Positions 11,725 to 50,092 of a stretch of DNA of 64,000 nucleotides are shown here, in pieces. Position 1 is the first letter of the stretch, and the number at the start of each line of letters is the position of its first letter. A program made the position numbers and the translations under genes. Source of the DNA: Schmidtea polychroa (Eukaryota); NCBI GenBank assembly GCA_044892525.1, contig CM097885.1, positions 34,412,001-34,476,000 of the forward strand, in the 5' to 3' direction. The notes beneath the pieces were generated by a model. It ran no database searches. It was given only the letters and a program-made list of their open reading frames with translations, and was not told the DNA's origin.

Positions 11725-11772
11725 TTCTTTAGTAGTAAATTCATATAGTAAAAATCCTTATAGTAAAAATCC

Positions 11773-12237
11773 TTATAGTAGAGATTCTAGATCATTATAA
11801 ATTTCTTGAATTATAGATTCAAAATCCTGCGTATGCCCCTTTCCCTCTCCCTTATTCAATCTATACAAAACATATAAACTTAAAATACCACATATTTTAG
11901 TATTCAAAGGTTGAACTTGTAAAGAGTTAAAAGTATAACCATTTGGGGAATCAATCGGAGAACCCCTCAAGAGATAATCTTCAACTTCTTTAGTAGGTTT
12001 AATCCCAAAAGAATCAAAGTAGATCGACTTCTTATATATACAAACCCAATGAGATCCTTTTTCATTTGAATTTTGATAATTGATTATTATATTCAGGGGA
12101 CTCTCCAGACTTGATAATTCATCATTCATTAATATTTTAATTTTTAAATTTAAATAATTTGCATAATCTTTTAAATCAAAATTTGTTTTTGCATTTATTC
12201 CAAATGTTTTTAAAAAATCTAATATTGAAGGAGTCAT
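11773..12237 (-). CDS. Adenain-like cysteine protease (virion maturation)
   Basis: GSHWV, YFDSFG and QVQ..ICG give the catalytic H/D/Q/C residues. Confidence 0.92.
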   Translation of the reverse strand: MTPSILDFLKTFGINAKTNFDLKDYANYLNLKIKILMNDELSSLESPLNIIINYQNSNEKGSHWVCIYKKSIYFDSFGIKPTKEVEDYLLRGSPIDSPNGYTFNSLQVQPLNTKICGILSLYVLYRLNKGEGKGHTQDFESIIQEIYNDLESLL

Positions 12238-12259
12238 TTTGTATTTTAAAACTTCGTAT

Positions 12260-13141
12260 TTATAACTTCGTATACTTATTAAATTTATCTTTTGAAATTA
12301 TTCCTTGTTTTAACAAATCTTTAGAAATCTTTAAAATATCAGAATCTAAATTATTATGTCCTGCTTTCCTTGCAGCTAATAGTTTTCTTAATTCAATAAA
12401 AAGATTGATGGGATTTGGTTTACCACCTTCACTAATTAATCCCTCTCCCTCTGTAACAACATAACCCTTTTCATTTTTATTTAAATAATTCTTTAAATCT
12501 TGAATATATTTTGCTTTAGAACTAGCTCTTATTAATTTTATTAAATTTAAATATTTTTTAATTTCTTCAACATCATCTGAAGAATATCCACAAAGTAATC
12601 TATAAAAATCATCTGTAAATTCAAAGTCTAAATATTCATTATTATAAACATTTTGTGAATGAATACGTGATTTATTTTCTGAATTTGAATATAAAGTAAA
12701 GTTTTGTTTATTAATTGTTATTATTTGATATCCTTCAGTATTAGTATTAAATGTGGGTCTAATTGAAGGAGGTAAATCATCTCTAATTTTAGGATCAACT
12801 TTAAGAGGTTTTGTTTTTAAAAACATTTCTTCTTCTTCCACATTAGAAATTCTTCTGCGTTTTCTTTGATTTCTTTCAGGATGGTTTTCACTGGATTCTT
12901 TTTCTTTATCCTGCCACTCTAGTTCTTTTATTTTTTGTTTTTTATCTTCTAACTCTTTAAATTTTGCTTGCTCATTGAAATCTTCCAACTCTTTTAGAGC
13001 TTTAATTGTTGGCCCCTGTTGTTGTGTTATTACCTCATTTAATATTATAGATTCAGCATGTTGAGTTGTATCTTTTTTATTATATTTATCTTGTTCTGAT
13101 TGTAATTTTTTTAAAAGTGCTAATCTTTCTTCATATACCAT
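12260..13141 (-). CDS. Conserved Polinton core-type protein
   Basis: GEGL motif, then C-terminal ELRKLLAARKAGHNN..DLLKQGII domain that I recognise from Mavericks; basic NLS-like RKRRR. Confidence 0.65.
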   Translation of the reverse strand: MVYEERLALLKKLQSEQDKYNKKDTTQHAESIILNEVITQQQGPTIKALKELEDFNEQAKFKELEDKKQKIKELEWQDKEKESSENHPERNQRKRRRISNVEEEEMFLKTKPLKVDPKIRDDLPPSIRPTFNTNTEGYQIITINKQNFTLYSNSENKSRIHSQNVYNNEYLDFEFTDDFYRLLCGYSSDDVEEIKKYLNLIKLIRASSKAKYIQDLKNYLNKNEKGYVVTEGEGLISEGGKPNPINLFIELRKLLAARKAGHNNLDSDILKISKDLLKQGIISKDKFNKYTKL

Positions 13142-13163
13142 TTTAATGGTATCAAAAATGGTA

Positions 13164-13742
13164 TCATAGTTCGAAGGGCTTCAAGTATAATCCTTTACCA
13201 TTTTTAGTTTTACAAAGGCATCCATTCTTTAAAGATTTACATATTTTTTTTAAATCTTTTTTATCTTTTGAAGATAAAGATTCAGATGTAGAAATTTGAT
13301 TTTTTAAAAAATCATTTAAACCTCTACCTTTATAAGGATCAAGATGGAGACCTTTGCCTTGAGACTTTTGCCGACTCCCCTCATATGGATTAAGATAGAG
13401 ACCCTTTCCAACGGACACTCCCCCTTTAGCTTGCCCTACCTTCTTCATTGAATCGATTTCAGTTTGTAGTTTTTCTTTTTCTAGGTCTGTCTTTTGAGAT
13501 TTTTTAGCTTTTTGAACTGTAGTTGCAATTCCTCCAGCTATTCCAGCAGCACCTGATAAACAAGCAATGATTGCAGGTATTAAAGCAGCTAATGGAAGAA
13601 TGCCTCCTTCTTTAGCTTCGTGGAGCTTCGCTCTAACTTGTTCTTTTACATGTTTTCCAATAAAATATTTTTTACCATCAATTACTACTGATTTATTTTT
13701 ATTTGAATTTATTAATTCTTGCAGAGATTCTTCAGTTGTCAT
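13164..13742 (-). CDS. Virion core/membrane-lytic protein with GxG-L repeats
   Basis: EGG then hydrophobic ILPLAALIPAIIACLSGAAGIAGGIA; repeated GKGLYLxP motifs. Confidence 0.7.
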   Translation of the reverse strand: MTTEESLQELINSNKNKSVVIDGKKYFIGKHVKEQVRAKLHEAKEGGILPLAALIPAIIACLSGAAGIAGGIATTVQKAKKSQKTDLEKEKLQTEIDSMKKVGQAKGGVSVGKGLYLNPYEGSRQKSQGKGLHLDPYKGRGLNDFLKNQISTSESLSSKDKKDLKKICKSLKNGCLCKTKNGKGLYLKPFEL

Positions 13743-13757
13743 TTTATAATAAATAAA

Positions 13758-14549
13758 ATGTCTACTTGGAAACCAATTTTAACTCGACACAAAAGTAAAT
13801 TTAATAATAAAGTATTTCCTGATAATTTTAGATTATTAATTGTTGGTTCTTCTGGATGTGGAAAGAATGTACTTGTTTTGAGAATGTTACTTGAAGATGA
13901 TTTTTTAGATTATAATAATTTAATCTTTTATTCTACAACCATAAATCAACCAGAATTACAACTTTTGAAATGTGGATTTGAAAATAAATTAACTAAAAAA
14001 GCAATAATTGATATTTTTAAAAATCAACATAGGTGTCCTGAAGAAGTTTTTCAACCTTGTGATATGGTTGATTGGTATAAGGAAAAGATTTTAGAATCAG
14101 ATATTAGTAATAAAAATGATTATATTTGTGAAGAAGGGCAGGAGGCAATTCAAGTTTTATTCTCTAATAAACCTGAAGATGTTTTACATTGTGATTTACT
14201 TCCTAAAGATAAAAAGAATCTAGTTATATTTGATGATGTTGTTAATATGAAAAATCAAGAGATTCAAAAGAGTTACTTTACACGAGGTCGACATAATAAT
14301 TGTAATGTTATTTATATATCTCAAACATATTATGCTTTAGATAAAAATTCAATAAGAAATAATTCCAATTGTTTTATATTTTTTAAATTAGATCGCCGTG
14401 ATAAGAATATGATTTATAATGATTTATTTTCAAATGTTGAACCTGATAAGAATATGTTTGATATGTTTGTTGATAATCATTGGAAAGAAAAATATAATTA
14501 TATTTATTTGGATAGAGAAGAAGCTGAAATATGGAAAAGTTTGTTTTAG
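13758..14549 (+). CDS. A32/FtsK-like DNA packaging ATPase
   Basis: Walker A GSSGCGKN, Walker B LVIFDD, TRGRH..ISQ..IRNN; first ATG at 13758. Confidence 0.93.
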   Translation: MSTWKPILTRHKSKFNNKVFPDNFRLLIVGSSGCGKNVLVLRMLLEDDFLDYNNLIFYSTTINQPELQLLKCGFENKLTKKAIIDIFKNQHRCPEEVFQPCDMVDWYKEKILESDISNKNDYICEEGQEAIQVLFSNKPEDVLHCDLLPKDKKNLVIFDDVVNMKNQEIQKSYFTRGRHNNCNVIYISQTYYALDKNSIRNNSNCFIFFKLDRRDKNMIYNDLFSNVEPDKNMFDMFVDNHWKEKYNYIYLDREEAEIWKSLF

Positions 14550-14560
14550 GGCTTGTCGAC

Positions 14561-15973
14561 TTAAAAATCTGTTTTCTGTAGTTCATTATTATAAAATCTA
14601 CCTAATATTTTTTCATTATTTAAATCAATGATGCTATATGTTATTGGAGTTGTATAATTTATTTTATTTATAATAAAAATTTCATTTGTCCATTTTGCTG
14701 TGAATCCTTTTTCAAATTTATTTTTATATTTAAATATTCTTACTCGGTCACCAATTTTAAACTTTGGTTTTTCAATAACATCATTTTCAATATTTACCAC
14801 TTTAATGGTTTCAGGCTTCATGGAAGCATTTAAAGGTGTTAATTTTATAGAACTATGTACATCATTATTATATTCATTTACAATCTTTTGTAACAATTCA
14901 TTGTTCCATTTTTGTTTTCCAATAGCAGTAAAATATTTCCACATTTTATTTTTTAATGTTCTATTTAATCTTTCAACTACGACTGCTTTTCCTTCGTTTT
15001 CTGTTGAATATAATTTAATATCATTTTCATTTAAAAACTTTGTAAAAACTTTGTTATAAAATTCTGTTCCTTTATCACACCATAAATATTTTGGGATTCT
15101 TTGATTTTCTTCAAATATATTTTCAAATGCTTCTGTAATAGAATATCCTGTTTTATTTTCTAAACACCTTGCAAAAGCAAATCTTGTATATAAATCTATT
15201 ACAGTTAAAATTATTTTATATTTTTCAGGGTCTGATGATTTGGGCATAAAGACTAAATCTGCAGACCATGTTTGATCTTTTTCATGTACTTGAACTTTTA
15301 AATATTTTTTATTTTTTCTAAATTCATGGTGTAATTCCTTTGCATATTTTATTTCTGATTCTGTTGGGGTTTGTAAACTAGTCTTGGCTGTACTCTCGAG
15401 GGATCTTTCAATCTCTGCTTGTTCGATAATCTTTTTATAAGCAACATCTTTTGCTTTCCTAGGAAGTCTTGCACCCATGGTGATCGGACTGTGTCCTAAG
15501 CCTATGAAAATCTTACCTTTCATTGCTAATTTAACTAGAGCTCTTTGAATCTTTTCTTGGGTTGATGGATTTTGGATTCTATTTAAATCATGTATTAAAT
15601 TCACATCTGCAACATGTCTATCTCTAAGATTTGTTGAATTGTATGCAATGTCATGTTTTAAAGTTGCTTGATCAATTCTATTTATTGGTTCTTCTCCTTG
15701 TTTGGGATTATTATTTTCATCTAATCTAATATCTAGACGTGTTCCTGGTCCAGTATAGTTGTGTTTAAATAAATGTCTTTCACCTGGATATTTTTCTGTA
15801 GTAAAAGGTTTTAATATTGAAGATGTTGTTTTTGAAGATTGCAAATCGCCTCCAGCTCGTGGAATTAGGTCACCTACTGTATGTTTTTTAGTTTTAAGAT
15901 GACTTGCTTTATGATGTCTTGTAACTTGACAATTACAAGTTTCACATCTCCAATAGGGTTTATTTAAAGACAT
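14561..15973 (-). CDS. Zn finger - phospholipase A2 - retroviral-type (rve) integrase fusion
   Basis: CETC..H..H; parvoviral-type PLA2 YTGPG..KHDIAY..AD; DDE triad SADL/WCDKGTEF/VERLNRTLK; SH3-like KFKIGDRVRI. Confidence 0.9.
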   Translation of the reverse strand: MSLNKPYWRCETCNCQVTRHHKASHLKTKKHTVGDLIPRAGGDLQSSKTTSSILKPFTTEKYPGERHLFKHNYTGPGTRLDIRLDENNNPKQGEEPINRIDQATLKHDIAYNSTNLRDRHVADVNLIHDLNRIQNPSTQEKIQRALVKLAMKGKIFIGLGHSPITMGARLPRKAKDVAYKKIIEQAEIERSLESTAKTSLQTPTESEIKYAKELHHEFRKNKKYLKVQVHEKDQTWSADLVFMPKSSDPEKYKIILTVIDLYTRFAFARCLENKTGYSITEAFENIFEENQRIPKYLWCDKGTEFYNKVFTKFLNENDIKLYSTENEGKAVVVERLNRTLKNKMWKYFTAIGKQKWNNELLQKIVNEYNNDVHSSIKLTPLNASMKPETIKVVNIENDVIEKPKFKIGDRVRIFKYKNKFEKGFTAKWTNEIFIINKINYTTPITYSIIDLNNEKILGRFYNNELQKTDF

Positions 15974-15990
15974 TTTAAAATGTTAAAATA

Positions 15991-17337
15991 TTAAGAATCT
16001 CCCCTAACATTTTCAATAATTGAAATCTTTCCACCATATAATTTCATTTCTATTTTCTTTTCTTCTAATATTAATGTATATACTTTAGCTTTAAAATTAG
16101 AATCCTTTGTTACATGAAGTGTAACATCAACATTATTTATGGCTAATCGATCATCTTGGTCTGATACATTTATACAAAATATAGAATATAAATTTTTGAA
16201 ATCTTCTAAACTTAATTGCGGTTCAACTTCGAAATCATAACATGTTTCAATATAATTTAGATATGGGAATATGTTTTCATTATTTTCAATATTAAATTCC
16301 ATTCTATTTATTGGATAATAAGAACTATTTAATTGAATTTGGATTGTTTTTAAATTATCATCTCCAATCTTTTGAATAAATAGATTGTTATTTTTTTGGA
16401 AAGATGAATCTGTTTCTTTGAATCCAATCAAGATATATCTTGGTCGGTATGCTAAATTTGCTACCTTTATAGAATATGTTGAACCCTCTGTCATACTAAA
16501 TTCACTACAGATTCTATTTAAATAATTTACATTTATAGACTTGTTGGAATTTAATCTTTCAAGGAGTTTGATTTCAGAATGTGGGTTTAATGTCCATTCA
16601 GGTATATGTAATTCAAGTGTTGATAATTTTAATTTAGCTTTTGTATCTACAGCTCCATAGAACAATCTTTTATCACCTTCTACTCTATTACAGATGAATT
16701 CTACAGCTCCATAGAACAATCTTTTATCACCTTCTACTCTATTACAGATGAATTCTATAAAAACATTATGAAGTATACGATTATAGTTTTGAAGGAATCC
16801 AAACAAGTGTTTTAATTCAAAATAGCCTTCAAATTTTTTAGATTTATAAAGTTCAGCTCTTTTATGGTAACCATGGTTTACATCTAAACCATCTTTATCT
16901 AAATCCCCTTTATTAGTGTCAGGAATCCAACCTGTTAATTCACCATATTCATTTTTATAATCACAACCAGTCAAAATAAAATTTAACATTGTAGAATATA
17001 CTCCTGGATGTAAAACAGTTTCAATTTCTGATGATCCTAGTTTTAATCTCATGTTGGAGAATAAATTTGGAAAGAAATTATTTTCTAGGGTTATATCTTT
17101 GTTTGCTTCAATTTCTAATTCTACTTTGTAATATAATTTGGCATTACAAATATCTATTGGGTTTGATGTTTGAAGAGATTGAAAAACTATATCACCCCTA
17201 CGATTTAAGTTTGCAATAGATCCTGAAGTTGGAGAGATTTTAAGTACATCATTTTTCTTGATTTCATGAGTAAATTCTTTATTATAATCAAGATTTAATT
17301 TATTTTTTTCTTGAATTTTAAGATTTATATTATTCAT
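15991..17337 (-). CDS. Major capsid protein (double jelly-roll) with an 18-aa internal duplication
   Basis: 448 aa from the ATG at 17337; LENNFFPNLFSNMRLKLGSSEIE, LFGFL, PRYILIGF, LYSIFCINVS motifs. Confidence 0.85.
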   Translation of the reverse strand: MNNINLKIQEKNKLNLDYNKEFTHEIKKNDVLKISPTSGSIANLNRRGDIVFQSLQTSNPIDICNAKLYYKVELEIEANKDITLENNFFPNLFSNMRLKLGSSEIETVLHPGVYSTMLNFILTGCDYKNEYGELTGWIPDTNKGDLDKDGLDVNHGYHKRAELYKSKKFEGYFELKHLFGFLQNYNRILHNVFIEFICNRVEGDKRLFYGAVEFICNRVEGDKRLFYGAVDTKAKLKLSTLELHIPEWTLNPHSEIKLLERLNSNKSINVNYLNRICSEFSMTEGSTYSIKVANLAYRPRYILIGFKETDSSFQKNNNLFIQKIGDDNLKTIQIQLNSSYYPINRMEFNIENNENIFPYLNYIETCYDFEVEPQLSLEDFKNLYSIFCINVSDQDDRLAINNVDVTLHVTKDSNFKAKVYTLILEEKKIEMKLYGGKISIIENVRGDS

Positions 17338-17422
17338 TTTTATATATAAAAGTTGATAAAAATAAAAGTTGAAAAAAAAAATAAAAATAAAAGGGAATTC
17401 AATAAAAAAATAATTTATAAAA

Positions 17423-17644
17423 ATGATTGACTTTATTGAAAGAATGAGAAATGAATTGAATGAAGTTAAACTTAAGAGAATGAAAAGAAGAGAAGAAGAA
17501 CCATTAGAATACATTAAAGAGTTGGTGGTAGAGAATGAAAAGTATCGACATTTTTACATGAATGCAGTAGAAGTAGCTGAGAAAAGATTAGATAAAATAA
17601 AACAATTACAGGAAAGAATAAAAGAACTTGAATCGATTATTTAA
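17423..17644 (+). CDS. Small coiled-coil protein whose stop codon is supplied by the right TIR
   Basis: 73-aa E/K-rich helical ORF with a TAAAAATG start context. Confidence 0.55.
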   Translation: MIDFIERMRNELNEVKLKRMKRREEEPLEYIKELVVENEKYRHFYMNAVEVAEKRLDKIKQLQERIKELESII

Positions 17645-17663
17645 AAAAATGACAAAAAATCCA

Positions 17664-17746
17664 AACCTTAATAGCGCAGTGGGCTAGACTGACACAGTGG
17701 TTCAAAATGCTAGTGGTTCAAATCACATCTGAGGTTAGTTTTTTTT
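17664..17746 (+). ncRNA. tRNA-like Pol III unit, inner copy, right TIR
   Basis: A box TAGCGCAGTGG 17672-17682; GGTTCAAATCA 17715-17725; T8 run 17739-17746. Confidence 0.55.
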
Positions 17747-17896
17747 CAACATAAAATAATATTAAAAATTTGAAAATAATATTGAAAATAGTGTGGGTAT
17801 CTTATATTTATAAAGTACTTGTATATTTTATTTTATTTATTTTATTTTATTTTATTTTTTTTATAAATTAAAAATTAAAAAAATGACAAAAATTCA

Positions 17897-17980
17897 AACC
17901 TTGATGGCGCAGTGGGAATAGACCGGCACCGTGGTTCAAATGGATAGCGGTTCAAATCCTAACTGTGGTTAGTTTTTTTT
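17897..17980 (+). ncRNA. tRNA-like Pol III unit, outer copy, right TIR
   Basis: A box TGGCGCAGTGG 17905-17915; B box GGTTCAAATCC 17949-17959; T8 run 17973-17980. Confidence 0.6.
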
Positions 17981-19599
17981 CAACATAAAATAATATTAAA
18001 AATTTGAAAATAATAGTGTGGGTATCTTAGATTTATATTTTATTTTATTTATTTTTATTTTATTTTATTTTATTTTATTTTATTTATTTTATTTTATTTT
18101 ATTTTTTAAACATAAATATGAAAAAAAAATTATTGAAACGGGTGATGGTGGCGAACCGGTAATTATCGCCACCTGTCTTTCGAACACCCCCGGATCGATT
18201 CTTTAATGTGCACATTTATTTCTCAGTTGTTTTCGGACCTCTTTCGAATTCACTTTCGAATTCATTTGTAATTTCGAGCAGCACACTTAAAACGCCGATG
18301 AAATCGTATTCGAGCGAGAAGCGAATAATAAGGTGTGCTGCTATTATCGAATTGATTCTGATTATGAGCCTGGCCAGCTTGTATATTGGAAGAGATTTGA
18401 TAAACGAAAGAGGTTGAATAAAAAAAAAATGATCCGGATCAAAAAAACTGTTGAGAGGACAGTGAAAAAAAAAAAAAAATACCACTGTCCTCTCAGAGCA
18501 GTTTTACTATTTTCATAAAATTCTTTATTCTTCAAGACATCAAGATTAAGATTTCATTTATTTTTTTTAATTAGCCAATTAGCAACTTGCTAGTTGGCAT
18601 CCTCAAGTAGCCTTCTTACTTTTTCATAATACCATTTTCTTTTCTATTCTCTTTATGTTTTTAGTTTGAAGCTTTTGAGTTTGAGGCTTTAAAGATTAAA
18701 ACAGTTAGAGTCATTAAGGGTGGTTGTTTTCAAAATATAGGGTTAAAATACTATAAAAGTATAAGTTTTAGGTTGTTTTTCTAATAGCTTAAGTGATTTG
18801 GAGGCATGTTTTGTTGGGAGGGCTGTTTTGGTTGGGTATATAACCACACTACTCGGCAATAACCATTTGTCATCCCGATTTCGATGAGTATATAAGGAAG
18901 GGGAAAATCAGAACAAATCGGCCTCAGCTAGGGTTAGAAGAAATCGAGCTTAGGAAAAGGTAAAAACGAATTTAGGAGATTAGGGAAAAAGAAGAGATAG
19001 AATAAAAATAAAAAGGGTGAAAAAGGATCAAATCAAAAAGAAAAAGGAAAACGTTGGTCAAGAGAACCTAAGGAAATAAAAGGTGAACATTATCTTTATC
19101 AAAGCATCAACATCGAGCGTAGAATCAGTCAAACTCGAACTGTTGGACTATTTATTATTGATTGTGTATTATTGAGAGAAAATATATTTTGATTTCAATA
19201 TACTTTGGGTCGTTTATTGTTTTGATTTAAAGGACACGAGGAGTCAGAGGTAACCGACTTAAATTAACTGAAAACCCAACAATTTAATAAAAGGCAACGT
19301 TTAGATGGGCCAGGAAATTCAAGTTTTTTAAATAATACTAAACAGGCATTTAATTTAAAAAAAATCTTTGAGTACTTTAATTATTTAAAAATTTTTTTGG
19401 GTCGTTTGGAGAAATATTTTAGGATTTTGGGTCGTGACCAAAAATCCTTAAGAACCGCTGATATAATCCATCAAATTCCTCATCAGATTCAATATTAAAG
19501 AGTTTAAACACCTTGTCCAAAAAATCTGGAATTTCAGATTCAATTTGATGTTCGATTTCTTCTTCAGATTCTTTTCAGATTCTTCTTCGCTATCAATGG

Positions 19600-21726: not shown

Positions 21727-21939
21727 TGGTGGGTTACAGGTGGTCAAATGTTTGTTATTTAGTGCTGTTACCAGCGTAACCCAAAATACAACGTTGTTTT
21801 CCGCTTGGTACCCGTTGAGTAATCAACGTTGGTACTGTACCAAGGGGTGGAGTACTCGCAAAAAGTGAGCGCACCAAGGGCACTATAATTGTCGAGTACT
21901 CTATGGATCCACGGACTACCGTTAGAAGGTTTGTGTCCG
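21727..21939 (-). ncRNA. Conserved multi-hairpin RNA structure at the element 1 terminus
   Basis: Four stems that covary with 30376-30593; GCTG-GTAA-CAGC GNRA loop. Confidence 0.6.
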
Positions 21940-22105
21940 ATTTACTCAGGTCCCTTACCGAAATTGTTTTCCCAAACCTCCACACGCAAATTTTCAGTCA
22001 CCAAGCAATTATAAAACAAAATACCTCATATACCAATTTAATAAAATTTAAAAATATACACCAATTTAATAAGACTTAAAATGAATCATTGGCATAACTG
22101 GTTAG

Positions 22106-23162
22106 TCACATCGCAGACGTTTGCGTCGGTGTTGATTTATCTTGGCGTTCCTGTTCGGCCAACCTGGCTTTCTTTAGCTTCTCTCTGATATTGCGTCCTA
22201 GCCGCTTTCGTTTGGGTTTGTTTACCGCAGCCGGGGGGTATATCTCTGCCAATTCTACGGTCAGCGGCCGGATTTGTCTCATCGCGGCTTTGTGTATAAA
22301 TTGCTCGTTGTGCTTGCTTTCTAGCGCGCGCACTTGTAATTTCAATGCGCAGATCTCCATCTGGTCCTGGGTGGCTTGGGCTTGAAGTTGGAGGATTTGT
22401 GCGGTCTTTTTCTTCATATCTGCGGGGCTGAACCAGGTGCCCTCGAATTCCCGGCACTTCCACTTGAGTTTGTCGACCCGGACTCGGAGATCTTCGGCCT
22501 GTTTTTGGGCCTGTTCCCGATCTTATTTTAGAATAATTTAAACACTAAAACATAAAGGAATTCATTACCCGCATCCATACAAAAGGAAATTCATTTAATC
22601 ATATAGTAAGATAATTAATTAACGTAGGTCGCCCGACCACTAAGGTGTACTGTAATCGCTAAAACCCACAACTTGACAACAACATCATTTATTAACTGAG
22701 GTACATAAGGAAAATTATAATTAGCTAATTTATTATATGAGATACCAAAGAAAACTGGTTAAGACAAGTCAAATATCATTTGTCATAATACAAAGTGTAA
22801 GGATCGTCAATAGTTCACGCTGCGTACTTACGGGGCCTTCCTCTCTTTCGTGAGTGCGCCTCGGCGTCTTCCAACTCTTCCAAGGGCACTACTTCCCTTT
22901 TGGCCCGGAGCTGGAGCTCGATCTTCTTCAGCCGCATTTAAGCAGCCTCCACTTCGATGGCCGCTCGATCGCGGGCCTCCTGTAGTAAGTCGTTCGTGGG
23001 TTCCGTCTTCACCCACGCCGGGGCGTCAGGTTCTGGGCCAAAATTATCCAGATCCAGACCGCGGTTCCAATCATGAATGCCGTACCAGATGTACCGGGTA
23101 CGGAGCCGGGTGATCATCTGCCCATCGGCTTCCCCATCGCTGTAATCGTCAGAGTGAGACAT
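22106..23162 (-). pseudogene. Two-exon coiled-coil gene in element 1 (exons 23162-22832 and 22544-22106), degenerate
   Basis: Homologous to 28897-30274 (RLRTRYIWYGIHDW; CREFEGTWFSPADMKK); GTAAGT donor at 22831; acceptor at 22545; premature stop at 22938. Confidence 0.7.
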
Positions 23163-26100
23163 TCCTACAATGCAAATCTAAATCAGGACACTTTACACAA
23201 ACTGAGATGAGTCTTTAAACACAGGATTTTTATTAACTCCTTCCCCAACCTACTAATTCACTCTGCCATCGTTCAACCCTAAGAACTCTAAAATACCCGC
23301 CGAAAACATAGACGGGCGGACGAAAACAGGGGTGGTACTAAGATATTGCCCGAGTTTTAATTATAACATGAAGTTTATGAAACTTATCGAATAAAATGAT
23401 GATAAAGACGTACGGAGAAAGGGCATCAGCCACGGAGTTCTTCATTACAACTTTGCATTCTAAATTAACTATTTCTTAGGTTTGTAACTTAGTTGACGAA
23501 TTTAATGGAGTAATATAACTAGCGAAATAACTACAACTATAACTTAGAATTCCGAAATTGAATTTTCTTATTTTATCCTTTAAATTAATAAATAAAAAAA
23601 ATTTAATAACCCCAAGTATTAATGTAATAAATCCTACACCTTATCTGATAATATCCTAAAAATTATTGAAAATTCATTTTGTTTAACTTAACTATTTGAG
23701 TTTTCAGAATTTTGTTTACCACTAGATGGTAATTTAAAATTTAATATATGAATTTTTTATGATTTTATGAAATCGGGTAATTTACCACTAAACTCGGGTA
23801 CATCGGGGCGATAAGTATTAGTGGCGAGCTTAGTTTCTCGTTTGCTTACTTCTCCCTCGGTTGTGCTCGTCATGAGTGGTGCAATCTCCTTTTGCTAGTT
23901 TGGAAGTAATTTATTTATTAGCAATAAATTTTCATTTTCAGGTACGTTTGATGGGAATTTTTTTCTCGGACGGAGATGGTTAATTTTAACTTTGAGAGGT
24001 TGTCATACGACTCCTTGCTGGTAATTTCGTTTTATGGTTTATAACGATTTCACACTTGTAATTTGTTAATAATAAAGTTTAGTATTTCCTTGTGACAATG
24101 CTTTTATATTTTATGTAAAGTACAAATTCATAATTTATTAATAATTTATAAAGTTGTCTTTTATATATTTCGGTAATCTGTACTATTTGTCTCCATACTT
24201 TACTGGTAATTCAAATAAACTTAATTAATCATTTCAAGTTATTAAGGCAAGTTTTATCTAGCTCCTAGTTTCAGGGGAGCTAAGTTAGCTAAGATGTTTC
24301 CGTTACTGCTAAGCTTGGGCCAAATCAAATTATTATATAAGTATATTTACTTACATTTACACATATACCTATATGTATACACCCGCCCATATCCTTAATT
24401 AAAATTAATAGCCATAACATTTTCTCCGGGGGGGAGTGTTACTAAAAATAGATTTTAGGAATTGTGACAGTTCTTATTGGAGCAAAGGGTGTCGATTCTA
24501 AATTTAGTTGTGGGGGGAAATCCTAAATCGATAATTCGATCAAATTTTGATTTTTTGGTAGATAATAATATAATAATAGTGTTGGGCTAGAACTGACTTC
24601 TAGACCCAAATTTCTAATTGTGACCGAAATGTGTAGGTACACAGCATGCAAAAAGCAAAAAAGTATAGTTAAATATTAAAACTACACCAAATAACCCATA
24701 GTAATTAAAGGAAAAAACAACAAAAACCTAAAACACAGAAATTAAATAAAATTATACAAAAACAAGAAGTTATGCAAAATCTAACTCAAAAATAGCCAAA
24801 TAAACACAGAGTTACAAAAAAACAAACTCGAATAACTTAAAAGATGGTAAAAATAGCAAAAAATTCCAGGAAAACCCAGAACATTCCATAAAAATGGCGA
24901 TGACCATCATAAAAGCTACCTTAAACAATAAAATTTAGAAAAATAAATAAATTAGTATTAAAAATAAAATTTCTTAAAAAGAAATTCGTAAAATATCAGT
25001 TAAAAATAAAAATTGAATTAAAAGTAATATGGAATGTTCTGGAACCGTTCCAAATCCATCATGGAGGAAAAATTAGCAAAAAATATTTAGGAAATAAAAT
25101 TTTAAAAATAAAAATAAAAATTATGACGCAAAAATCGCCATTAAAAATATCATAATTACAAAATAGAAACGTCTGGAATAAAAAGAATTCGAGTTTGTTT
25201 TAATGCATCAATACATACACGTGTACAAAATAGGTATATATACCGACGCATTTTCGTCACAATTCAGATATTTTTGTATGCCAAAAAATTTTTCTGCCGA
25301 ATTTTCGAACCATATTGAAAGTAAGGATGGTATATTTATTGTATAACTATTATTCATTTTTATGATATATTATAATGATTCTAATTTTTGTCACCTTTTT
25401 ATTATGATCCGATTATTCACAACAAGAGTGACCAGCGTCGTCGTGAGCGGATTACATCCACGACGCTGATCAGCCTTGTTTCCAATAACTACTTCACATG
25501 CACGATACGGGTCTACGACCCCACATGCACTAAATTTCAATTTTTTTACCGGAAGGTCGCCACGAACAAATGGTTTCTAACCAGGAGTAGGGCGGTAAAT
25601 CCATCCAGGTAGTTGGCATAGTCGCAGGGACTATGCGGACGAAATAAAATGCGGGCAAATAATCGCGGGAAACATATTACAATAAGGCCTATCGTACCGT
25701 ATTCAGTTGAATCGGGAAAGTAGGAAAATTTTAATTAATTCGACCTTCCGGTAAACGACACATCTAAAGTACACACTCAAATATTCTATAGGAAATACAT
25801 CATTAGGAACAGCTAAACGGGAAAGATCCCAGACTCAATTTATCACAAAAGTTATCAAGTAGTCGGCTAATTGCACAAACTATCATTCAATATGCTCAAT
25901 ATTAACTATTGTTATTAGATTTTATTGATATTATTCATAATTATGTTCGATTTTAAAGATAATCTAATCACGTTCAATGATATATTAATTACAAGTCTTT
26001 ATCCTTACCTTATGGGTATTGGAATTCTATTTTGCCTTAATAGTAATATCACCCCCAGAATTATTATCATTATCCTCACCACCCTTCTCTCGTTATCTCC

Positions 26101-26269
26101 ATAGAGAGTGTGTCATTACCATCAGTACGAAATTGCATAAATCAGCAGATTAAATTTAAAGGGCAATCTTCCTTACCAATGTCGTAAAGTCGTCGAATCA
26201 CCAGTTCATGGTTATAACCCAACTGGAATGTGTACAACTTACCTGGTTTCATAAATGGTTCCTTGAATT

Positions 26270-26770
26270 ATATATTTATGGTCCGATTCATAAATATCCT
26301 AACTGGTTCTGGTATAGATATTTATCTTATGAAGTATTAAAATGATAGTTGGTAAATTTTCATTCATAAATATCCTAACTTATTATGATGTGTATCTTCA
26401 TCCTATAAAATATTAAAATGATAGTTTGTAGATTTTTATTCATAAATACCCTACTCATCCTGATGTATATATTTATCCTATAAAATATTAAAATGATAGT
26501 AAATTTTCATTCGTAAGTATCCTAACTTATTCTGAGGTATATATTTATCTTATAAAATATTAAAATGATAGCTTGTAAAATTTCATGCATAAATATCCTA
26601 CCTTATGTTGATATCTATATTTACTTATAAAATGTAAAAATGATAGTTTATGAATTCTCATAAGACGATCCTCTGAATTATATACTTACCGTCCAGTACC
26701 TAAAAATCCTAATTTATTTTGATATATAATTAACTTACAAAATGTCAAAATGATAAATCTACGTAACTAG
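26270..26770. repeat. ~60-bp degenerate minisatellite
   Basis: Recurrent TTCATAAATATCCTAACT..TATAAAATATTAAAATGATAG. Confidence 0.7.
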
Positions 26771-27069
26771 CCTCTATGTTATATATTTACCTAATTGTCC
26801 TAGATTCACTTAATTTTATATATATTTAGCTTATATAATATGGAACTACTAATTTATAAATATTCATAAACATCCCCCCTGAATCCTATCTTCATTATCT
26901 ATTGTACTAATATCCGAAAGTAACCTATCCAATATATACTTAGTCTGTAAAATGGTAAACTAATAATTTCATGAACACCCCCCCCCCCCTGAATTATACA
27001 TTTATTACCAACTGCATAAAACTTACACTTCTTATCAGGATTAACCTTATCGTTATTGCCATTATTAGC

Positions 27070-27276
27070 ATTGCTATTGTATTATCTTTAATGTTACGAT
27101 TATGATTATCGTTATTATTATTATTATTATTATTAGTATTATCATTATTATTATTGGTAATGTATCACTATTATTACTATTTCTATTATTATAATCATTA
27201 TTATTAAAAATTATTATTGTTATTATCATTATTATTATCATTACCATTATTATTATCATTACCAATACTATTAATT

Positions 27277-27308
<32 letters not shown>

Positions 27309-27350
27309 TTATTATTACCCTTAATATTATTATTATTATTATTATTAGTA
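27070..27350. repeat. Imperfect (ATT)n microsatellite
   Basis: Direct reading. Confidence 0.9.
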
Positions 27351-28896
27351 ACATGATTATCAATAGCATGTTACTATTAATAGGAAAATTCGAAACCGAC
27401 AGTATCGATTTTTTTTTCTTCCCCTCATAACAAAGTTAGACCAATAATACCGCTTCTATTATTAGTAACAACCCTGCAAACCAAGGGTTACCCCCTACGA
27501 ACTACTCCTAACTGACCGAATAGGTGGCACCTACTCTCCCCTACACGAGCCAATCGCCATCGACCATGTCAGTCGGAACTCTAATCTTTCGATGAAACCT
27601 ATCCCACCCATGCGAATTTAACCCTTGTTACCCCAGAAGTAGATCGCGTGTAAGCCACGGAGCCTAGTCCCCGAAAGTGACGGTCTGAATCGGAATACCC
27701 ACTCAATAGGACCAAAAGTAAGGAATAATAACCAGTCGTGATTCTAACTATATAGGTTCTCATGAGGAGTTAACAAAATTAATCGATAAGTATTAACTTA
27801 CGTCAAACAAAATTACTTAAATAGGAATCAACAAAAGCGAGAATGTATTTAATAAAATCAAAAATTTTGTTTACAAAACTATTCTAATCACAAAAGGAAT
27901 CTTACTGGTAATATTAAGGAGTGTCTAGAAGGGGACAACTCAGAAAAACTCGAATCCCAATTTTCACTTTAAATTCATGTAGCGTAGATCATTAAAATCA
28001 TGAAACAACCATGAAATTCCAAAAGTCTTTCCCTAAATGGCCACGAATTGGGAGTATAGCCATGCTTTAGATTCCATTAAACAGTAATAGCTCCAATACG
28101 GTGGATGATTGAAATACAAAACACTGAGGGATTAGAGACCCATTCCTGAAATTATACAACTACGACAGATAAAAACTTCAACTTACTGTCGAGCACCAGC
28201 TGAGGAAAGAGCCGCTTACAACCACTATGGTCAGGGATTCACAAAGAGCTGAATACAAATTCATACAATTCGCGACATCCACTTCCCATAGTGGGTTAGA
28301 GCAGCCAAATTCTAATAACTCCGTAAATAACGGATTTCCTTTTGAAAGTTAACTCATCAAATTAACAAATAAAATATTTTTGTTTAATTAACTTAAACAA
28401 CAGATAGTTTAATATTGAATTTATAAAATATAAATTAAATTTTTTTTATATTAATTATTCAATCTGTAGTAGCGACGTTTGATTTATTTTATTAGTACTT
28501 AATTTTTGGGTTTAATTCATAAATTACCCTTTTATGGTATTGATTATTAAATTGACAAGAGGGACTTTACAGTTATTTCGTAAAAATTTCGTTAAGGTTA
28601 AGTCATCCATTTGGACTATCAACCCAGTGAAAACTAGGATGATAAAACTCGGACTTCTAGTACGCGAACAAAAAGCAAGGTGGTAGAGTCGACTAAAGCT
28701 AGTAGAAGGGGGTATAAAAGCGATTACGAAAAGTAGCTCATAATTTAAACTAAACCGCATACAGAGACTATGGTCGATTGGGCGAAATGCACATCAGATT
28801 AGAATGTAACTTTGAAGGCATATTCAGACGGATTGAAATAACCCCGTAGTGGAAGAGCCAGGAGTCGTTCTAAATGCCTCTTTTATCATTGCAGAT

Positions 28897-30274
28897 ATGT
28901 CCAACACCATGGTATGGAACGCACAGGCCGGACCCTCATCCTCCGATTCAAGCCGCGAACCAACTCGCGAGGAGACAGACGAAGCCGTACGATTACGGGA
29001 GGACGCAGAGGTTGCTCGCCTAAGGTCCCGGTGGATATGGTACAAAATCCACGATTGGACCTACCAGAATGTGGTTCCAGTGACCCCGAAGATCGAACCG
29101 TATATTAACTATACGTCACTGGCTCTGAGCGACGCCTTCGACAATGTGAAGGAGGCGGTGGACCGACTGGACCGGCTCGAAACATCAGTCCTGGCCGGCG
29201 AGTTGGAAGACATCGACGGCTACGCCCGGGCCCAGTGCCACCCAAAGCGGACCGCAGCTCTTCCCGGGGACTGGAGTGCCTACGAACTTCTCGACGGGGA
29301 CCGGAACCGGCGAGAAAACGCGGGCGTCCGCGGAAAACCCGCCCAACTCAACCAAGATAATCGCCGGGCCAAATATCCGCACCTTGTGATACGACTTCGA
29401 GTGGACTCGCTTTCCGATACAATTGATAATGATGATCTTACTCACTATAATGATTAGCATGTCTCGACTTCGTTATCATCGCAGTGTAAAGTGTGGTTGT
29501 CATGCAATTCTGTATTTGATTTTCTTTTAACCTATGTGCAAAGTGTTATTCTTTTATGTTTTGTTTATTAATATTAAGCTAATTGTTTGGATTCCCTTAT
29601 TGTATACGTATATACTGATATTCCTCTAAATGTTGACTATTATTACCAACCTCATAACATCTTAGTGAAACTCATAGGACTGGATTTGGGGTTTAGGTGC
29701 GCACTGATGCGGGCTGCGACGGGGAGATTATAGCTTATGCCACAATGGTGTTAGCGATATAACGTGGATACTTGACGAAAGTGCGAAAAGATACTAATTT
29801 TTACTTATTTCAGTGTTAAAACTCCTGGAAGAAATGAGAACAGACAGAGAGAGGGCGCAACAACAAGTAGAAGAATACCGGGCCAAGTTAATGCGACTTA
29901 AAGCCCATTGCCGAAATTTCGAGAGCACCTGGTTCCCGCCCACAGAGATGAAGAAGCGAATGAAACTCATCACTCAACTGCAACTCCAGAGCGCCCAAGA
30001 TCAAGTTGAGTTGCGGGCCCTCCGCCTGAGAGTGAGAGAGCTGGAGGTCCAGTCACACCAACAAAACCTTGATCGAGAGGTCATCTCCAGGATCCGCCCT
30101 ATGAATGAGCTGCTCCACCAACGAAAGGAATGTGCAGCGTCGAAGATCTCGAAGAAAAAGATCCAGCCGGGTAAAGCGGCGCGGGCGAAAATCCGCCAAG
30201 CCTGTCAGGCCCAAGTGACACTCAAGGCTACTTCGTCAGAGTCTGCACCGAAAGAACCGACTATAACCCTATGA
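28897..30274 (+). CDS. Spliced coiled-coil gene of unknown function in element 2 (exon from 28897; exon 29814-30274)
   Basis: Two GC-richer ORFs homologous to those of element 1; TACTAAT..TTTCAG acceptor at 29813; CATTGCAG acceptor 2 nt before the ATG; donor not identified. Confidence 0.6.
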
Positions 30275-30375
30275 GTTTTGATTTTGTGTTGTGAATAAAT
30301 ATTACGGGTGTATTCATATCTGGGCATTTCGAATTTGCCATAATGTCGATTTTCGGAATGGGGACTAAAGAAAAT

Positions 30376-30593
30376 CGGACATAGGCCTTCTATCGGCAGT
30401 CCGTGAACCCTCGTGGGTACTAGACAATTATAGTATGCTAGGCATGCTCACTTTTTGCTAGTGCCCAAACCCTTGATACAGTACCAACGTTGATTGCTCA
30501 ACGGGTATCAAGTGGTCAGCTATAAATTGTATTCTGGGTTACGCTGGAAACAGCATGAGGGGGTAAAGATTTTTCAGTACCTGTAACCCACCA
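30376..30593 (+). ncRNA. Conserved multi-hairpin RNA structure ending in a 7-bp stem plus ACCA
   Basis: Compensatory changes relative to 21727-21939; G-U pairs and a GCTG-GAAA-CAGC loop on this strand. Confidence 0.6.
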
Positions 30594-30597
<4 letters not shown>

Positions 30598-30669
<72 letters not shown>

Positions 30670-30730
30670 TAATAATAATAGTAATAATAATAATGATAAT
30701 AATAATAATAATAATAACGATGATAATAAT
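30598..30730. repeat. (AAT)n microsatellite
   Basis: Direct reading. Confidence 0.95.
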
Positions 30731-30929
30731 ACGAATTATATCTCCTAGTTTAATTTGTATGCATTCATAATTTATAATTCAAGTTTAACATAAAATTATA
30801 CTTTATATTCTTGGCATAGGATCATATATTTAAATGTAACTTAAGATTATGCGTTATAGTTCAGGCAGGTTATCGTTTAGGAATTAGGTATTTAATATTG
30901 AATTCTAGTTTATACTTGAGGCCTCGGAT

Positions 30930-31630
30930 TTATAATTTATATTTCTATACATTATAATTTTTATATAGCTATTTATAATTTATATTTTACTAATCAAAAT
31001 CCATTCTTAATTTATATATAACTGTTTATACTTTATATTTTTATAATCAAAATTGATATATAACTAGTTATAATTTATTTTCTACATTTATAATTTATAT
31101 ATAACTATTTATAACTTGCATTTTATAATCAAATTATATTTATAATTGATATATAACTATCTATAATTTATATTTTTATAATCAAATTTTATATATAACT
31201 ATTTATAATTCGTATTTTTAGAATCAAAATATATTTATAATGTATATATAACTGTTTATAATTTATATTTTATAATCAAAATTTATAAATAACTATTTAT
31301 AATTTATATTTTCGTAGTCAAAATTTATCTATAACTATTTGTAATTTATATTTTATAACCAAAATTTTGCATATAACTATTTATAGTTTGTATTTTAAAA
31401 CCCAGATACATTTTTAATTTATATATAACTAGTTACAATTTATATTTTTATGACTAAAATTTTTATATAAGTATTTATGGGTTGTATTTCTATAATCAAG
31501 ATATATTTACAATTTATATAGCACTATTCATATTTTATACTTTTATAATAAAATTATATTTATAATGTAGGTATAACCATTTATAATTTATTTTTTGATA
31601 ATCGAAATATAGTTATGATTTATATGTCGT
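30930..31630. repeat. AT-rich degenerate minisatellite
   Basis: Recurrent TATATAACTATTTATAATTTATATTTTTATAATCAAAA. Confidence 0.75.
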
Positions 31631-33497
31631 TATTTTGGATTTGGAAATTATAATTTATCATTATCATGAATTTGTAATCTACAGTTTACAGTCAGTATGA
31701 ACTCGCAATTTATACTTCTAGGGAATACAATTTACATTTTCATAACTAATTATAATTTATATTTTTAGGAAATTAGGATTAAAATTTATACTTTATAATT
31801 GTCATAGGGTTACAATTTATAGTTTATCGTTAATATAAATTGGAAATCTTTAATTTCAAGAAATCAAATTTATAATTTATACTTTTATAATTAATCCTAA
31901 TTTCCCTTTAGAAGAAATTAAAACCATAAATATAATCCATAATTCTATTGAGATGATATTTTATACTCTTATGGGTTTATGATTTGTATTTTTATAGTCA
32001 GTTTAAAGTTTATTCAATTTAAAATCTAAATCTGGCCGATACGTATGTCGAACACTCTGATGAATGCCATCACTACTAAATCAATCATTAAAGAAAATCT
32101 TTACTTTACTAGAAAATTTATTTGGGACATTTCCATTCTTAACGTATAGGCAGAGTCGGTTCTGGATGAATTCAACCGTTTATATTAAGTGTGAATTGTA
32201 GAGTTGTGATTAATTTAGGTCTGAGATCTACTCTGTTTATTAACCTTATGTTGTTTGTATTGTAGTGATTTTTAGTGTTGATTTTAATTATGTTATGCAT
32301 TGAAGTCGGGAAGAGTGTTTGCTTTCGCGGCCCCACTGGGACCACTACGACAAAGCTTACTGTTCTGTGGTAAGTCAACCCTTTACGGCTGACCTATAAT
32401 AAATAGGTAGAGTCAGACGGAGGATTTCATCGACTTAACTCCATGACAGGACCATGAGTGGTGCGACCTCCGAATGACCCAAACAATAAAGGAATATAGT
32501 AAAGATAATGCGTGTCTGCATGTTGTTGTGGTAGATTTTATAAATGATTGAATGTAGGACCGAACAGAGACGCAGGTGTATCAATACGCCACTGATCACT
32601 CGTACATCCAAGAAAAAAAAATTTAAAAAGAGTTAGGTTGAGACACAACTAATAATATTAATAAACATGAATAAATAAAATATCAAAGCTTAGGTTGAAA
32701 TACAAATAATAATATCATTAAACATAAATAAAATATCAAAACCTACAATTGAATAAGGTTGCAAGTTTTTTCCAGAAAAAAAATTTGGCATAAAAGAGTG
32801 TTTTTGTGACTAAAATGCGTCGGTATATATACCTATTTTTGTGTGTGCAAGTACACGTGTATGTATTGATGCATTAAAACAAACTCAAATTCTTTTTATT
32901 CTAGAATTTTCTATTTTTTAATTTTGATATTTTTAACGGCAATTTTAGTGCCATAATTTTTGTTTTTATTTTTAAATTTTTATTTTCTAATTATTTCTTG
33001 TTAAATTTACCTCCATGATGGACTTGGAACGGTTCCAGAACATTCCATATTAATTTTAATTTAATTTTTATTTTAATGGTGTTTTTCCTAATTTCTTTAA
33101 GAATTTTTATTTTTATGACTAATTTATTTATTTTTGATAACTTTTATTGTTCCATATGGCTTTTGTGATGGTTATCACCATTTTTATGAAATGTTCGGGG
33201 ATTTTCTAGAATTCTTTACTGTCTTTACTATCTTCTAAGTTATTCGAGTCTGTTTTTCGTAACTCTATGTTTCTTTGCTATTTTTGAGTTAAATTCTTGC
33301 ACAACTTCTTGCATTTGTATTATTTTATTTAATTTCTGGGTTTATATTTTTGTTGTTTTCTCTCTTAATTAATATTGTTTACTTGATGTATTTTTTTTTA
33401 TATTTAACTGTACTTTTTGCTTTTTTGCGTGCTATGTACCTACGCATTCTAGCCACATTTTAGAGTTTTGGGCCTAGAAATCAGTTCTAGCCCAACT

Positions 33498-46499: not shown

Positions 46500-47680
46500 C
46501 AATACAAAAATCCGACTACCACTAAAAAAGCCAAGGATTTTTCAGACTATAGTAAGGTTAGTCTCCTTGGTCCTGAGAAATAGGTGGTCTACACTAAAAA
46601 ACGTGGTAATTTAAGGTCTCAGGATATTTTCAATACAAAAAGCTGGTCTACACTAAAAAAGCATGGAAATTTCACACTATAGTGAGGTGGGTCTCCTTGG
46701 TCCTGAGAAAAAGGCGGTCTTCAATAAAAAAGCATGGTAATTTAAGGTCTCAGGATATTTTCAATACAAAAATCCGACTATCAATGAAAAAGCATGGTAA
46801 TTTAAGGTCTCAGGATATTTTCAATACAAAAAGCTGGTCTACACTAAAAAAGCATGGAAATTTCACACTATAGTGAGGTGGGTCTCCTTGGTCCTGAGAA
46901 AAAGGCGGTCTTCAATAAAAAAGCATGGTAATTTAAGGTCTCAGGATATTTTCAATACAAAAATCCGACTATCAATGAAAAAGCATGGTAATTTAAGGTC
47001 TCAGGATATTTTCAATACAAAAATCCGACTATCAATGAAAAAGCATGGTAATTTAAGGTCTCAGGATATTTTCAATACAAAAGCTGGTCTTCAATAAAAA
47101 AGCATGGTAATTTAAGGTCTCAGGATATTTTCAATACAAAAAGGTGGTCTACACTAAAAAAGCATGGATTTTTCACACTATAGTGAGGGGGTCTCGATGG
47201 TCCTGGGATTTTCAATACAAAAAAATTTTTTCAATACAAAAATCCGACTACCACTAAAAAGCATGGAATTTTCACACTATAGTGAGGGGGTCTCGATGGT
47301 CCTGGGATTTTCAATACAAAAAAAAATTTTTCATTACAAAAAGGCAGTCTCAATAAAAAAGCATGGATTATTCACACTATAGTGAGGGGGTCTCGATGGT
47401 CCTGGGATTTTCAATACAAAAAAAATTTTTTCAATAGAAAAAGGTGGTCTACACTAAAAAAAGCCAAGGATTTTTCAGACTATAGTGAGGTCAGTCACCT
47501 TGGTCCTGAGAAATGGGTGGTCTACACTAAAAAAACGTGGTAATTTAAGGTCTCAGGATATTTTCAATACAAAAAGCTGGTCTACACTAAAAAAGCCAAG
47601 GATTTTTCAGACTATAGTGAGGTGAGTCTCCTTGGTCCTGAGAAATAGGTGGTCTACACTAAAAAAACGGGGTAAATTTT
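46500..47680. repeat. ~60-bp satellite (mirrored at 59470-60260 with a different copy number)
   Basis: AAAGCATGGTAATTTAAGGTCTCAGGATATTTTCAATACAAAA.. units. Confidence 0.9.
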
Positions 47681-48350
47681 TTCAATTAAAGTAAATAATG
47701 GTCCTAAAAATTAAATTACAGTAAATTATGGTCCAAATTTTTCAATTAAAGTTAATTAATGTCCAAATTTTTCAATTACAGTAAATTATGGTCAAAAATT
47801 TAGAATTACAGTAAATTATGGTCCAAATTTTTCAAATACAGTAAATTATGGGTCTAAAAATTAAATTACAGTAAATTATGGTTCAAATTTTTCAATTACA
47901 ATAAATTATGGTTCTAAAAAATTAAATTACAGTAAATTATGGCTCAAATTTTTGAATTACAGTAAGTAATGGGTCTAAAAATTAAATTACAGTAAATAAT
48001 GGTCCTAAAAAATTAAATTACAGTAAATTATGGTCCAAATTTTTCAATTACAGTAAATTATGGTTCTAAAAAATTAAATTACAGTAAATTATGGTCCAAA
48101 TTTTTCAAATGCAGTAAATTATGGTTCTAAAAATTAAATTATAGTAAATAATGGTTCTTAAAAATTAAATTACAGTAAATAATGGTCCAAATTTTTAAAT
48201 TAAAGTAAATTTAGGTTCTAAAAAATTAAATTAAACTAAATTATGGTTCTAAAAATTGAATTACAGTAAATTATGGCTCAAATTTTTCAATTACAGTAAA
48301 TTAAGGTTCTAAAAAATTAAATTAAAGTTAATTAAGGTCCAAATTTTAAA
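47680..48350. repeat. 30-31-bp satellite (mirrored at 59030-59460)
   Basis: GTCCAAATTTTTCAATTACAGTAAATTATG units. Confidence 0.9.
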
Positions 48351-48499
48351 ATTAAGTAATCAATGGTAAAAAATTTTAAATAAGTAAATCAAAGTAATAA
48401 TTTTTAAATAAGTAATGTAATAAGTAAATTAAAGTAAGATTTTTAAATTTATTAACAAAAAGTTGAAATAATAGAAGGTGTTTGAGAATTGAAATTTTT

Positions 48500-48720
48500 T
48501 AATGAAAATTTTTATGAAATAATTTTCAATGGTAATTTTTTATGGAAATTTTTATGAAATATTTTTCAATGGTAATTTTTTATGGAAATTTTTATGAAAT
48601 ATTTTTCAATGGTAATTTTTAATGAAAATTTTTATGAAATATTTTTCAATGATAATTTTAGATGGAAATTTTTAAGATAACTTTTAATGAAAATTTTTAT
48701 GAAATATTTTTCAAAGACAA
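48500..48720. repeat. 40-bp satellite (mirrored at 58655-58870)
   Basis: TTTATGAAATATTTTTCAATGGTAATTTTTTATGGAAATT units. Confidence 0.85.
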
Positions 48721-48734
48721 ATTTTAATAATAAT

Positions 48735-49760: not shown

Positions 49761-50050
49761 CATGAAATTATTGGTTAAATATGAAAATAAGGATTATATT
49801 TAGTTGTTAAGTAAATTATGGTGTAAAATTAAGAAATAAAGAATAATTAGGTAAATTAAAGTTAAAAATTTTAAATAAGTAAATTAAGGTTCAAAATTTA
49901 AAATTAAGTATCCAATGGTTCAAATTTTAAATTAAAGCTAAATAAGTAAATTAAAGTAAGATTTTTAAATTTATTATCAAAAGATTGAATAACCACCAAC
50001 TTTTTTGAGAAATGTAATTTATAATGAAAATTTAAATGGAAATTTTAATG

Positions 50051-50092
<42 letters not shown>

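Follow-up and report, generated by a model that had tools for sequence, protein, structure and literature searches.

Background

Structured leaders are expected in LTR retroelements. Pairing of the leader with the primer tRNA beyond the primer site has been described for the PAS of HIV-1, which is disputed, and for the U5/T-loop contact of RSV (PMC3185550), and boxes 0, 1 and 2.1 of Ty1 are extended primer contacts, box 2.1 being disputed (PMC3592414). Rev-like proteins that bind LTR RNA structures are also known, as in HTLV-1 (PMC7551171).

The giant Ty3/gypsy element Burro, or GYPSM1, of planarians has been described with respect to its protein content (PMC6431247; PMC13465017), and the B-IAP of Burro1 is described in PMC13465017. 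The portions of these two accounts on which we draw cover proteins and make no mention of LTR RNA structure, the primer tRNA or an LTR-encoded gene. In the corresponding portion of a third source, expression is the only matter that concerns Burro (PMC8532177).

We have analyzed a 64,000-nucleotide stretch of the Schmidtea polychroa genome (the window; contig CM097885.1, positions 34,412,001 to 34,476,000, forward strand), which contains two copies of a predicted four-domain RNA fold. By their sequence, each of the two forms the 3′ end of a solo LTR that belongs to a Burro-type giant Ty3/gypsy element.

Results

Copy A is a solo LTR of 6,014 bp (24580..30593, plus strand) with TG...CA ends and a 4-bp target duplication, ATAG, and its insertion site is an (AAT)n tract within copy B. 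Copy B (21727..33497, minus strand; 4-bp duplication CAGT) is likewise a solo LTR, from a sister subfamily; it is split by copy A and itself breaks the pol region, as read from translations, of an ordinary Ty3/gypsy element. In copy A the fold occupies the final 218 nt of the LTR, with CGGAC starting at 30376 and ACCA ending at 30593, and the same four-domain RNA was recognized in copy B by sequence and folding (21727..21939, minus strand). The two LTRs align over ~720 nt at the start and ~240 nt at the end, and nowhere else. The first block (24580-25300 in copy A, 32770-33497 in copy B) is 83% alike between the copies and is the only other conserved block of the LTR. When the copy A-type LTR was compared with three other families, the sole match was 41 nt long, inside the fold, in one family. 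Elsewhere in the window, a Polinton/Maverick-like element with long terminal inverted repeats was read from translations at 3690-18853 (a 1,413-aa DNA polymerase B-like ORF, an ATPase-like ORF and an integrase-like ORF), and 46500-60230 holds tandem arrays and a large inverted repeat whose arms are near-perfect (2,589 bp at 100%; 1,493 bp at 99%).

A full-length relative of ~44 kb, a length that includes an insertion, carries two 5.7-kb LTRs that are 77-92% like copy A by segment. Its Pfam domains follow the order Gag CCHC, MATH, env (fusion glycoprotein), PR-RT-RH-IN and ankyrin, and it also encodes a TRAF and a BIR+RING protein; in the window's family, BIR (PF00653) and RING occur together in one 392-aa ORF. 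The element thereby resembles Burro/GYPSM1 in its length of more than 30 kb, its kilobase-long LTRs, its Gag zinc knuckles, its MATH domain, an env-like fusion protein between gag and pol, PR-RT-RH-IN and ankyrin, and the BIR+RING ORF is as in Burro1, a name given here by domain content (BIR + RING, B-IAP region) without comparison to a reference sequence. The long Gag-Env-Pol ORF starts ~2.7-3.6 kb downstream of the primer site, giving a leader of ~3 kb. In three families, tandem repeats of 72-74 nt, with GTCGTAAG in each unit, were observed 1.4-1.9 kb past the primer site. None of four full-length copies had a polypurine tract within 45 nt upstream of the 3′ LTR, the longest purine run being 3-4. 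Instead, a small, conserved hairpin is present, along with 8-10 nt of complementarity to the primer-binding site (~-20 kcal/mol with flanks, calculated without a control). Plus-strand priming may be unusual in these elements, or the genome ends may pair with each other.

The terminal ACCA (30590..30593, plus strand) is the right end of the LTR, the integrase end; in full-length copies, 8 nt separate it from a tRNA-Pro primer-binding site. The CCA forms the right half of the LTR terminal inverted repeat (TGTTGGG...CCCACCA), and the 18-nt site is the complement of the 3′ end of the host tRNA-Pro(TGG) plus CCA. This order of LTR end, 8 nt and 18-nt site was found at four of the 30 loci most like copy A and at one of the 30 most like copy B; the remaining loci of both sets run into unrelated DNA past the LTR end, as for 3′ or solo LTRs. 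Throughout the genome searched (781 Mb, four large contigs) there were 1,062 primer sites, 402 of them directly behind the end of the window's family (controls, 0), and ~1,980 LTR ends of this family, the 402 and ~1,980 counts coming from two separate exact patterns. Among 90 primer-site loci sampled by place, the site came after ACCA in 30, after AACA in 59 and after unrelated sequence in one. Since a primer site follows and the sister families end in AACA, the CCA is the ordinary integrase end of the LTR.

The distance from LTR end to primer site was 7-8 nt in 89 of the 90 loci. The usual gap is 0-3 nt, and at 7-8 nt integrase would need to trim a long end. The tRNA-Pro(TGG) genes form a tandem array on contig C1 (130.90-130.95 Mb, period ~475 bp), with 1,555 matches genome-wide. 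Assembled contigs from three runs that we guessed to be RNA and from one other were compared with the 5′ LTR; one crosses the CCA by only 15 nt, too short to count, and the contigs start 38-45 nt upstream of the aligned part, which cannot fix the start of transcription. Two A-tails, each in a single contig, lie ~400 nt past the primer site and may be genomic A-runs, because an A16 occurs nearby in one copy.

Domain 1 of the fold (30376..30403, plus strand, as are all domains of copy A) was delimited by alignment and consists of a stem, an internal loop, a CC/GG stem and the loop TTCTATC. Its TTCTA, which was not used to select copies, is present in 37-41 of 41 copies per column, and the first pair of its inner stem holds in only 14 of 41. 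The internal loop reads GTAAG in other families and this motif is absent from the window's family; a donor-like GTA occurs in domain 1 of 23 of 25 non-window-type representatives and in none of 12 window-type ones. The linker TGAACCC (30404..30410) is predicted to be single-stranded and is complementary to nt 50-56 (T arm) of the tRNA-Pro gene, making it a candidate primer-activation box. Domain 2 (30415..30466) forms a long hairpin that covaries and contains a conserved 1x3 loop, in which U faces CAC (30449-30451). Domain 3 (30472..30512) is likewise a covarying hairpin; its conserved 8x1 loop, AGTACCAA (30480-30487) across from G, reads AG(T/C)(A/T)CCAA/G across copies. The loops of domains 2 and 3 were partly fixed by the search pattern, and the unbiased primer-site sample has them in nearly all 87 loci with the core. 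The loop of domain 2 resembles the C-loop in being an asymmetric loop within a hairpin whose longer strand starts with C. The C-loop is, however, defined by two crossed non-canonical pairs that form triads (PMC9516175), and the likeness here is one of 3x1 shape alone.

Domain 4 (30536..30589), delimited by folding and family copies, comprises the terminal stem GGGTTAC/GTAACCC, a GNRA hairpin and a variable insert. Of 49 distinct copies from the window's family, picked by stem likeness, 43 have ACCA after the 7-bp stem and 48 have a GNRA hairpin; no double change was found in either the stem or the hairpin. The integrase end accounts in part for conservation of the 3′ strand of this stem. At the position of domain 4, most other families whose end is intact fold a terminal stem of different sequence. 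Conservation of the fold as a whole begins sharply on the 5′ side. A candidate poly(A) signal, AATAAA (30294..30299, plus strand), lies 77 nt upstream of domain 1 at a position that is not conserved across families. A multi-copy variant that keeps domains 2-3, with domain 1 changed and the LTR end absent, was observed with a TRAF-like gene on one side and fragments of hAT-like transposase on the other; the duplication that holds it is 99.8% identical. Several additional pairings were considered and rejected: a loop-linker pseudoknot fails in several lineages, and a GUAC self-dimer and a GUAAG/CUCAC pairing each fail in some. Spliced-leader RNAs have a donor GU in the first stem-loop and an Sm site between later hairpins; this identity was rejected as well, the GU being absent in 12 of 12 window-type copies and no conserved U-run lying between domains 2 and 3.

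An initial annotation of the window had proposed a selected RNA fold at the end of giant LTR elements, and much of it is borne out here. All four stems are present where it placed them in both copies, and its estimate of about six compensatory pairs corresponds to exactly six double changes between copies A and B (one in inner stem 1, two in outer stem 2, two in inner stem 2 and one in stem 3), beside one change from U-G to U-A. Folding z relative to shuffles was -4.0 for copy A and -2.9 for copy B. Genome-wide, the core motif occurred 5,852 times, with 4 in controls. At near-fixed spacing, the core was present in 87 of the 90 primer-site loci sampled by place, from five families and two singletons, and two of the 90 had an insertion in its place.

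For the larger alignment, one representative of each of 40 clusters (from 196 instances) was combined with copy A, and the 41 copies were aligned by sequence alone; the 40 representatives are related, about a third of them being one family. Paired cells reached 84% versus 65% in shuffled and 32-44% in slid controls, and the covariation score was 0.54 versus 0.22 and 0.10-0.17, respectively. On the tree, 60 double changes were counted versus 3.4 +/- 2.0 expected under a tree-aware null (maximum of 10 in 100 nulls), with such changes in 32 of the 38 named pairs; this summed count is optimistic, because the pairs were named from copy A partly after an earlier alignment had been viewed. The ranking of all column pairs is not affected by that choice, and its five best pairs were model pairs, two of them with E<0.05. 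Significance of single pairs at E<0.05 was reached by only 2 of the 38 named pairs, and an earlier covariation test on 29 copies had low power (best E 0.12). Folding z was below -2 in 23 of 40 representatives. Over the 27 best-aligned pairs, 99 G-U cells versus 29 A-C cells favor the plus strand, the sense proposed originally. Judged by these patterns of substitution, the fold is under selection, with loops nearly fixed across very different families.

Outside one clade, 23 of 29 cluster representatives have a T-arm box of 7-8 contiguous bases complementary to tRNA-Pro nt 49-56, with variants that are G-U compatible; all 11 representatives inside that clade lack it. The motif, GAACCC, is short, was spotted after the fact and was counted without a shuffle control. 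It would also pair with the T arm of the host Lys tRNA and is not Pro-specific. Several subfamilies of the window's family (five loci) have a second GAACCCG, again a T-arm complement, ~25 nt downstream of the primer site. Within the clade lacking the T-arm box, a D-arm box lies inside domain 4, with z of -3.3 to -6.4 in 5 of 11 representatives against controls made up of Lys and Arg-type tRNAs only (average z of 0), and in a third clade (six representatives) the D-arm box is 11 bp long and lies upstream of domain 1. By complementarity, the same tRNA D-arm segment is reached from two places in two clades. A D-arm box reached z<-2 in only 8 of 40 representatives and was not significant in the window's own family (z of -0.2 and +0.8), where an all-wobble match was also rejected as no better than shuffles.

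Like the HIV-1 PAS and the RSV contact, the T-arm box is a short element of the leader that lies outside the primer-binding site and is complementary to the T arm of the primer. It differs in that the tRNA is tRNA-Pro, the complementarity is 7-8 bp and lies ~190-240 nt upstream of the site, and the box is replaced in one clade by a D-arm box; the pairing is a predicted one. As in Ty1, an LTR retrotransposon RNA would pair with its primer outside the primer-binding site within a structured leader. The Ty1 boxes, however, lie beside a 10-nt site in the GAG region, whereas here the LTR itself holds the boxes and the full 18-nt site comes after them.

The LTR also encodes proteins. ORF2 (29798..30274, plus strand) is predicted to be helical or coiled-coil, has a TWF motif and a basic stretch, and is preceded by a YAG acceptor-like site before its ATG; its homolog in copy B was identified by sequence (22106-22522, minus strand). 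ORF2 homologs adjoin the RNA in the LTR in 4/4 full-length families examined. Structure prediction for ORF2 gave a helical model (mean pLDDT 76, pTM 0.31), it had no Pfam match, and its matches in the protein Atlas were all under 0.9, the nearest named family being Delta antigen at 0.77, which is chance level. Its 15 database relatives are mostly chimeric unnamed gene models. Seven of 16 ORF2-related database sequences have 6-12 Arg in 17 residues, a stretch that to us recalls the arginine-rich motif of Rev. A basic stretch is present in 5/5 element proteins and is strongly Arg-rich only in the database homologs; after it, an export-signal-like pattern was found in 0/5 element proteins, with loose matches in 4/14 database homologs scored. 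ORF1 (28837..29457, plus strand) has no Pfam match and was not found in three other families examined. An AG lies just before the ATG in most accessory ORFs.

The Rfam search that had been suggested for the fold gave no match, at E up to 5 and 10, over the element in the window region and 12 family loci. Viral and metagenome scans, the databases covered outside the source genome, yielded no homolog: domain 1 was absent from all 18 viral-contig matches, and the one metagenome match lies inside what reads as a bacterial gene, so that all were taken as chance. No description of the fold was found in the literature searched, a scope that stops short of the main Burro papers (Grohme 2018; Lee 2026), and a prior description is possible.

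Discussion

On balance, the four-domain fold at the primer-side LTR end is likely a replication platform in the genomic RNA leader, with Gag as its simplest partner. Among the functions first offered for the fold, a packaging or primer-activation signal remains the best. The observed parts of this model are the LTR end, the primer site, the covarying stems, the conserved loops and the complementarity between boxes and tRNA. The region would be transcribed from the 5′ LTR as U5, or perhaps R-U5, and domain 4 would present the primer site. Annealing to the 18-nt site would open the acceptor and T stems of the tRNA, upon which the T arm, now free, could pair with the linker GAACCC; the D arm would pair with separate boxes in other families. 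An element protein, most simply Gag/nucleocapsid, would dock on the fixed loops of domains 1-3, and this docking would choose unspliced RNA for packaging and priming. Pairing with the tRNA accounts for the linker and domain 4 and not for the fixed loops of domains 1-3, for which a protein partner is a guess. The platform would be idle in the two window copies and other solo LTRs, which have no primer site behind them.

A second reading, which we consider rather doubtful, is that domains 1-3 are the response element of an LTR-encoded basic protein, in the manner of Rev/RRE, Rex/RxRE or Tat/TAR; by binding their internal loops, the protein would export or boost unspliced RNA. The ORF2 homolog beside the RNA in 4/4 full-length families invites it, as do the predicted helical and basic character of the protein, the strong Arg enrichment in 7/16 database sequences and the acceptor-led accessory ORFs, which recall a complex retrovirus in need of unspliced-RNA export. 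So does the GTA in domain 1 of 23/25 non-window-type representatives: were it a donor, domains 2-4 would remain only in unspliced RNA. In a single lineage, the window's family, a shortened, Lys-rich protein goes together with remodelled loops in domains 1 and 2. Against this, RNA binding by the protein is putative, export-signal-like patterns were seen in 0/5 element proteins and 4/14 homologs, there is no Pfam match and the Atlas scores are at chance level, the donor is absent from the window's family, and the C-terminus, acidic and aromatic in three families, would suit a DNA-binding activator equally well. The arrangement is like HTLV-1 Rex/RxRE in placing a large LTR RNA structure beside an element-encoded basic protein, with many acceptor-led accessory ORFs (PMC7551171). 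It differs in consisting of three side-by-side hairpins that reach the integrase end, probably in U5, and in belonging to Ty3/gypsy rather than to a retrovirus.

Control of splicing or polyadenylation, in which the fold would distinguish the 5′ from the 3′ LTR by exposing or hiding a U1 site (GUAAG) in domain 1, appears quite improbable. The same domain 1 GTA would serve it, an AATAAA lies upstream in several families, and the major splice donor of foamy virus offers a precedent (PMC3694450). However, the fold is kept in the window-type representatives, 0/12 of which have the donor; the AATAAA varies in position and is absent in several families; and the foamy-virus donor is upstream of the poly(A) signal, whereas here it would be downstream. 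An IRES-like or translation-control leader for the very long Gag-Env-Pol frame is suggested by the multi-domain fold, its fixed internal loops and the ~3-kb leader, yet this is very improbable given that the long ORF begins ~2.7-3.6 kb downstream of the primer site and that no Rfam IRES was matched.

A new self-cleaving ribozyme, for which the fixed loops within covarying stems and the sharp 5′ conservation edge might speak, as might domain 1, which we take to look like P3/L3 of HDV-like ribozymes, is scarcely credible. An HDV-like descriptor (P1 of 7 bp, P2, a U20-G25 pair and a catalytic C before P2) was matched by 0/35 representatives in which domain 1 was found. The hammerhead core (CUGANGA...GAAA), already noted as missing in the initial annotation, occurred in 0/40 representatives on either strand, and Rfam likewise offered no known ribozyme; the loop-to-linker pseudoknot fails in several lineages, and cleavage here would part the repeated end from the primer site. 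Finally, the idea of a tRNA-mimic 3′ end for priming or CCA addition keeps an acceptor-like 7-bp stem, discriminator and CCA in the window's family only (43/49 distinct copies) and is otherwise largely refuted, with almost no probability left to it, by the normal tRNA-Pro site that follows in the DNA of full-length copies, the CCA being an inverted-repeat end that gives way to AACA in 59/90 loci, the lack of a T arm, T loop or cloverleaf, and an ARAGORN result of 0 tRNA in the window.

Conclusions

The fold is a real, apparently undescribed structured leader of a known element. Loops that are fixed across families sharing almost no other LTR sequence are unusual for an LTR leader, and thousands of copies provide covariation without experiments. 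A tentative and rather unlikely extension is that Burro possesses its own Rev/Tat-like system together with swappable T-arm/D-arm boxes that grip the tRNA-Pro primer; if the Rev/Tat-like reading were true, gene control of the complex-retrovirus kind would have arisen independently in an invertebrate retrotransposon. According to work cited in PMC13465017, planarian stem cells and regeneration are supported by the element, and the fold points to specific loops, tRNA segments and a protein.
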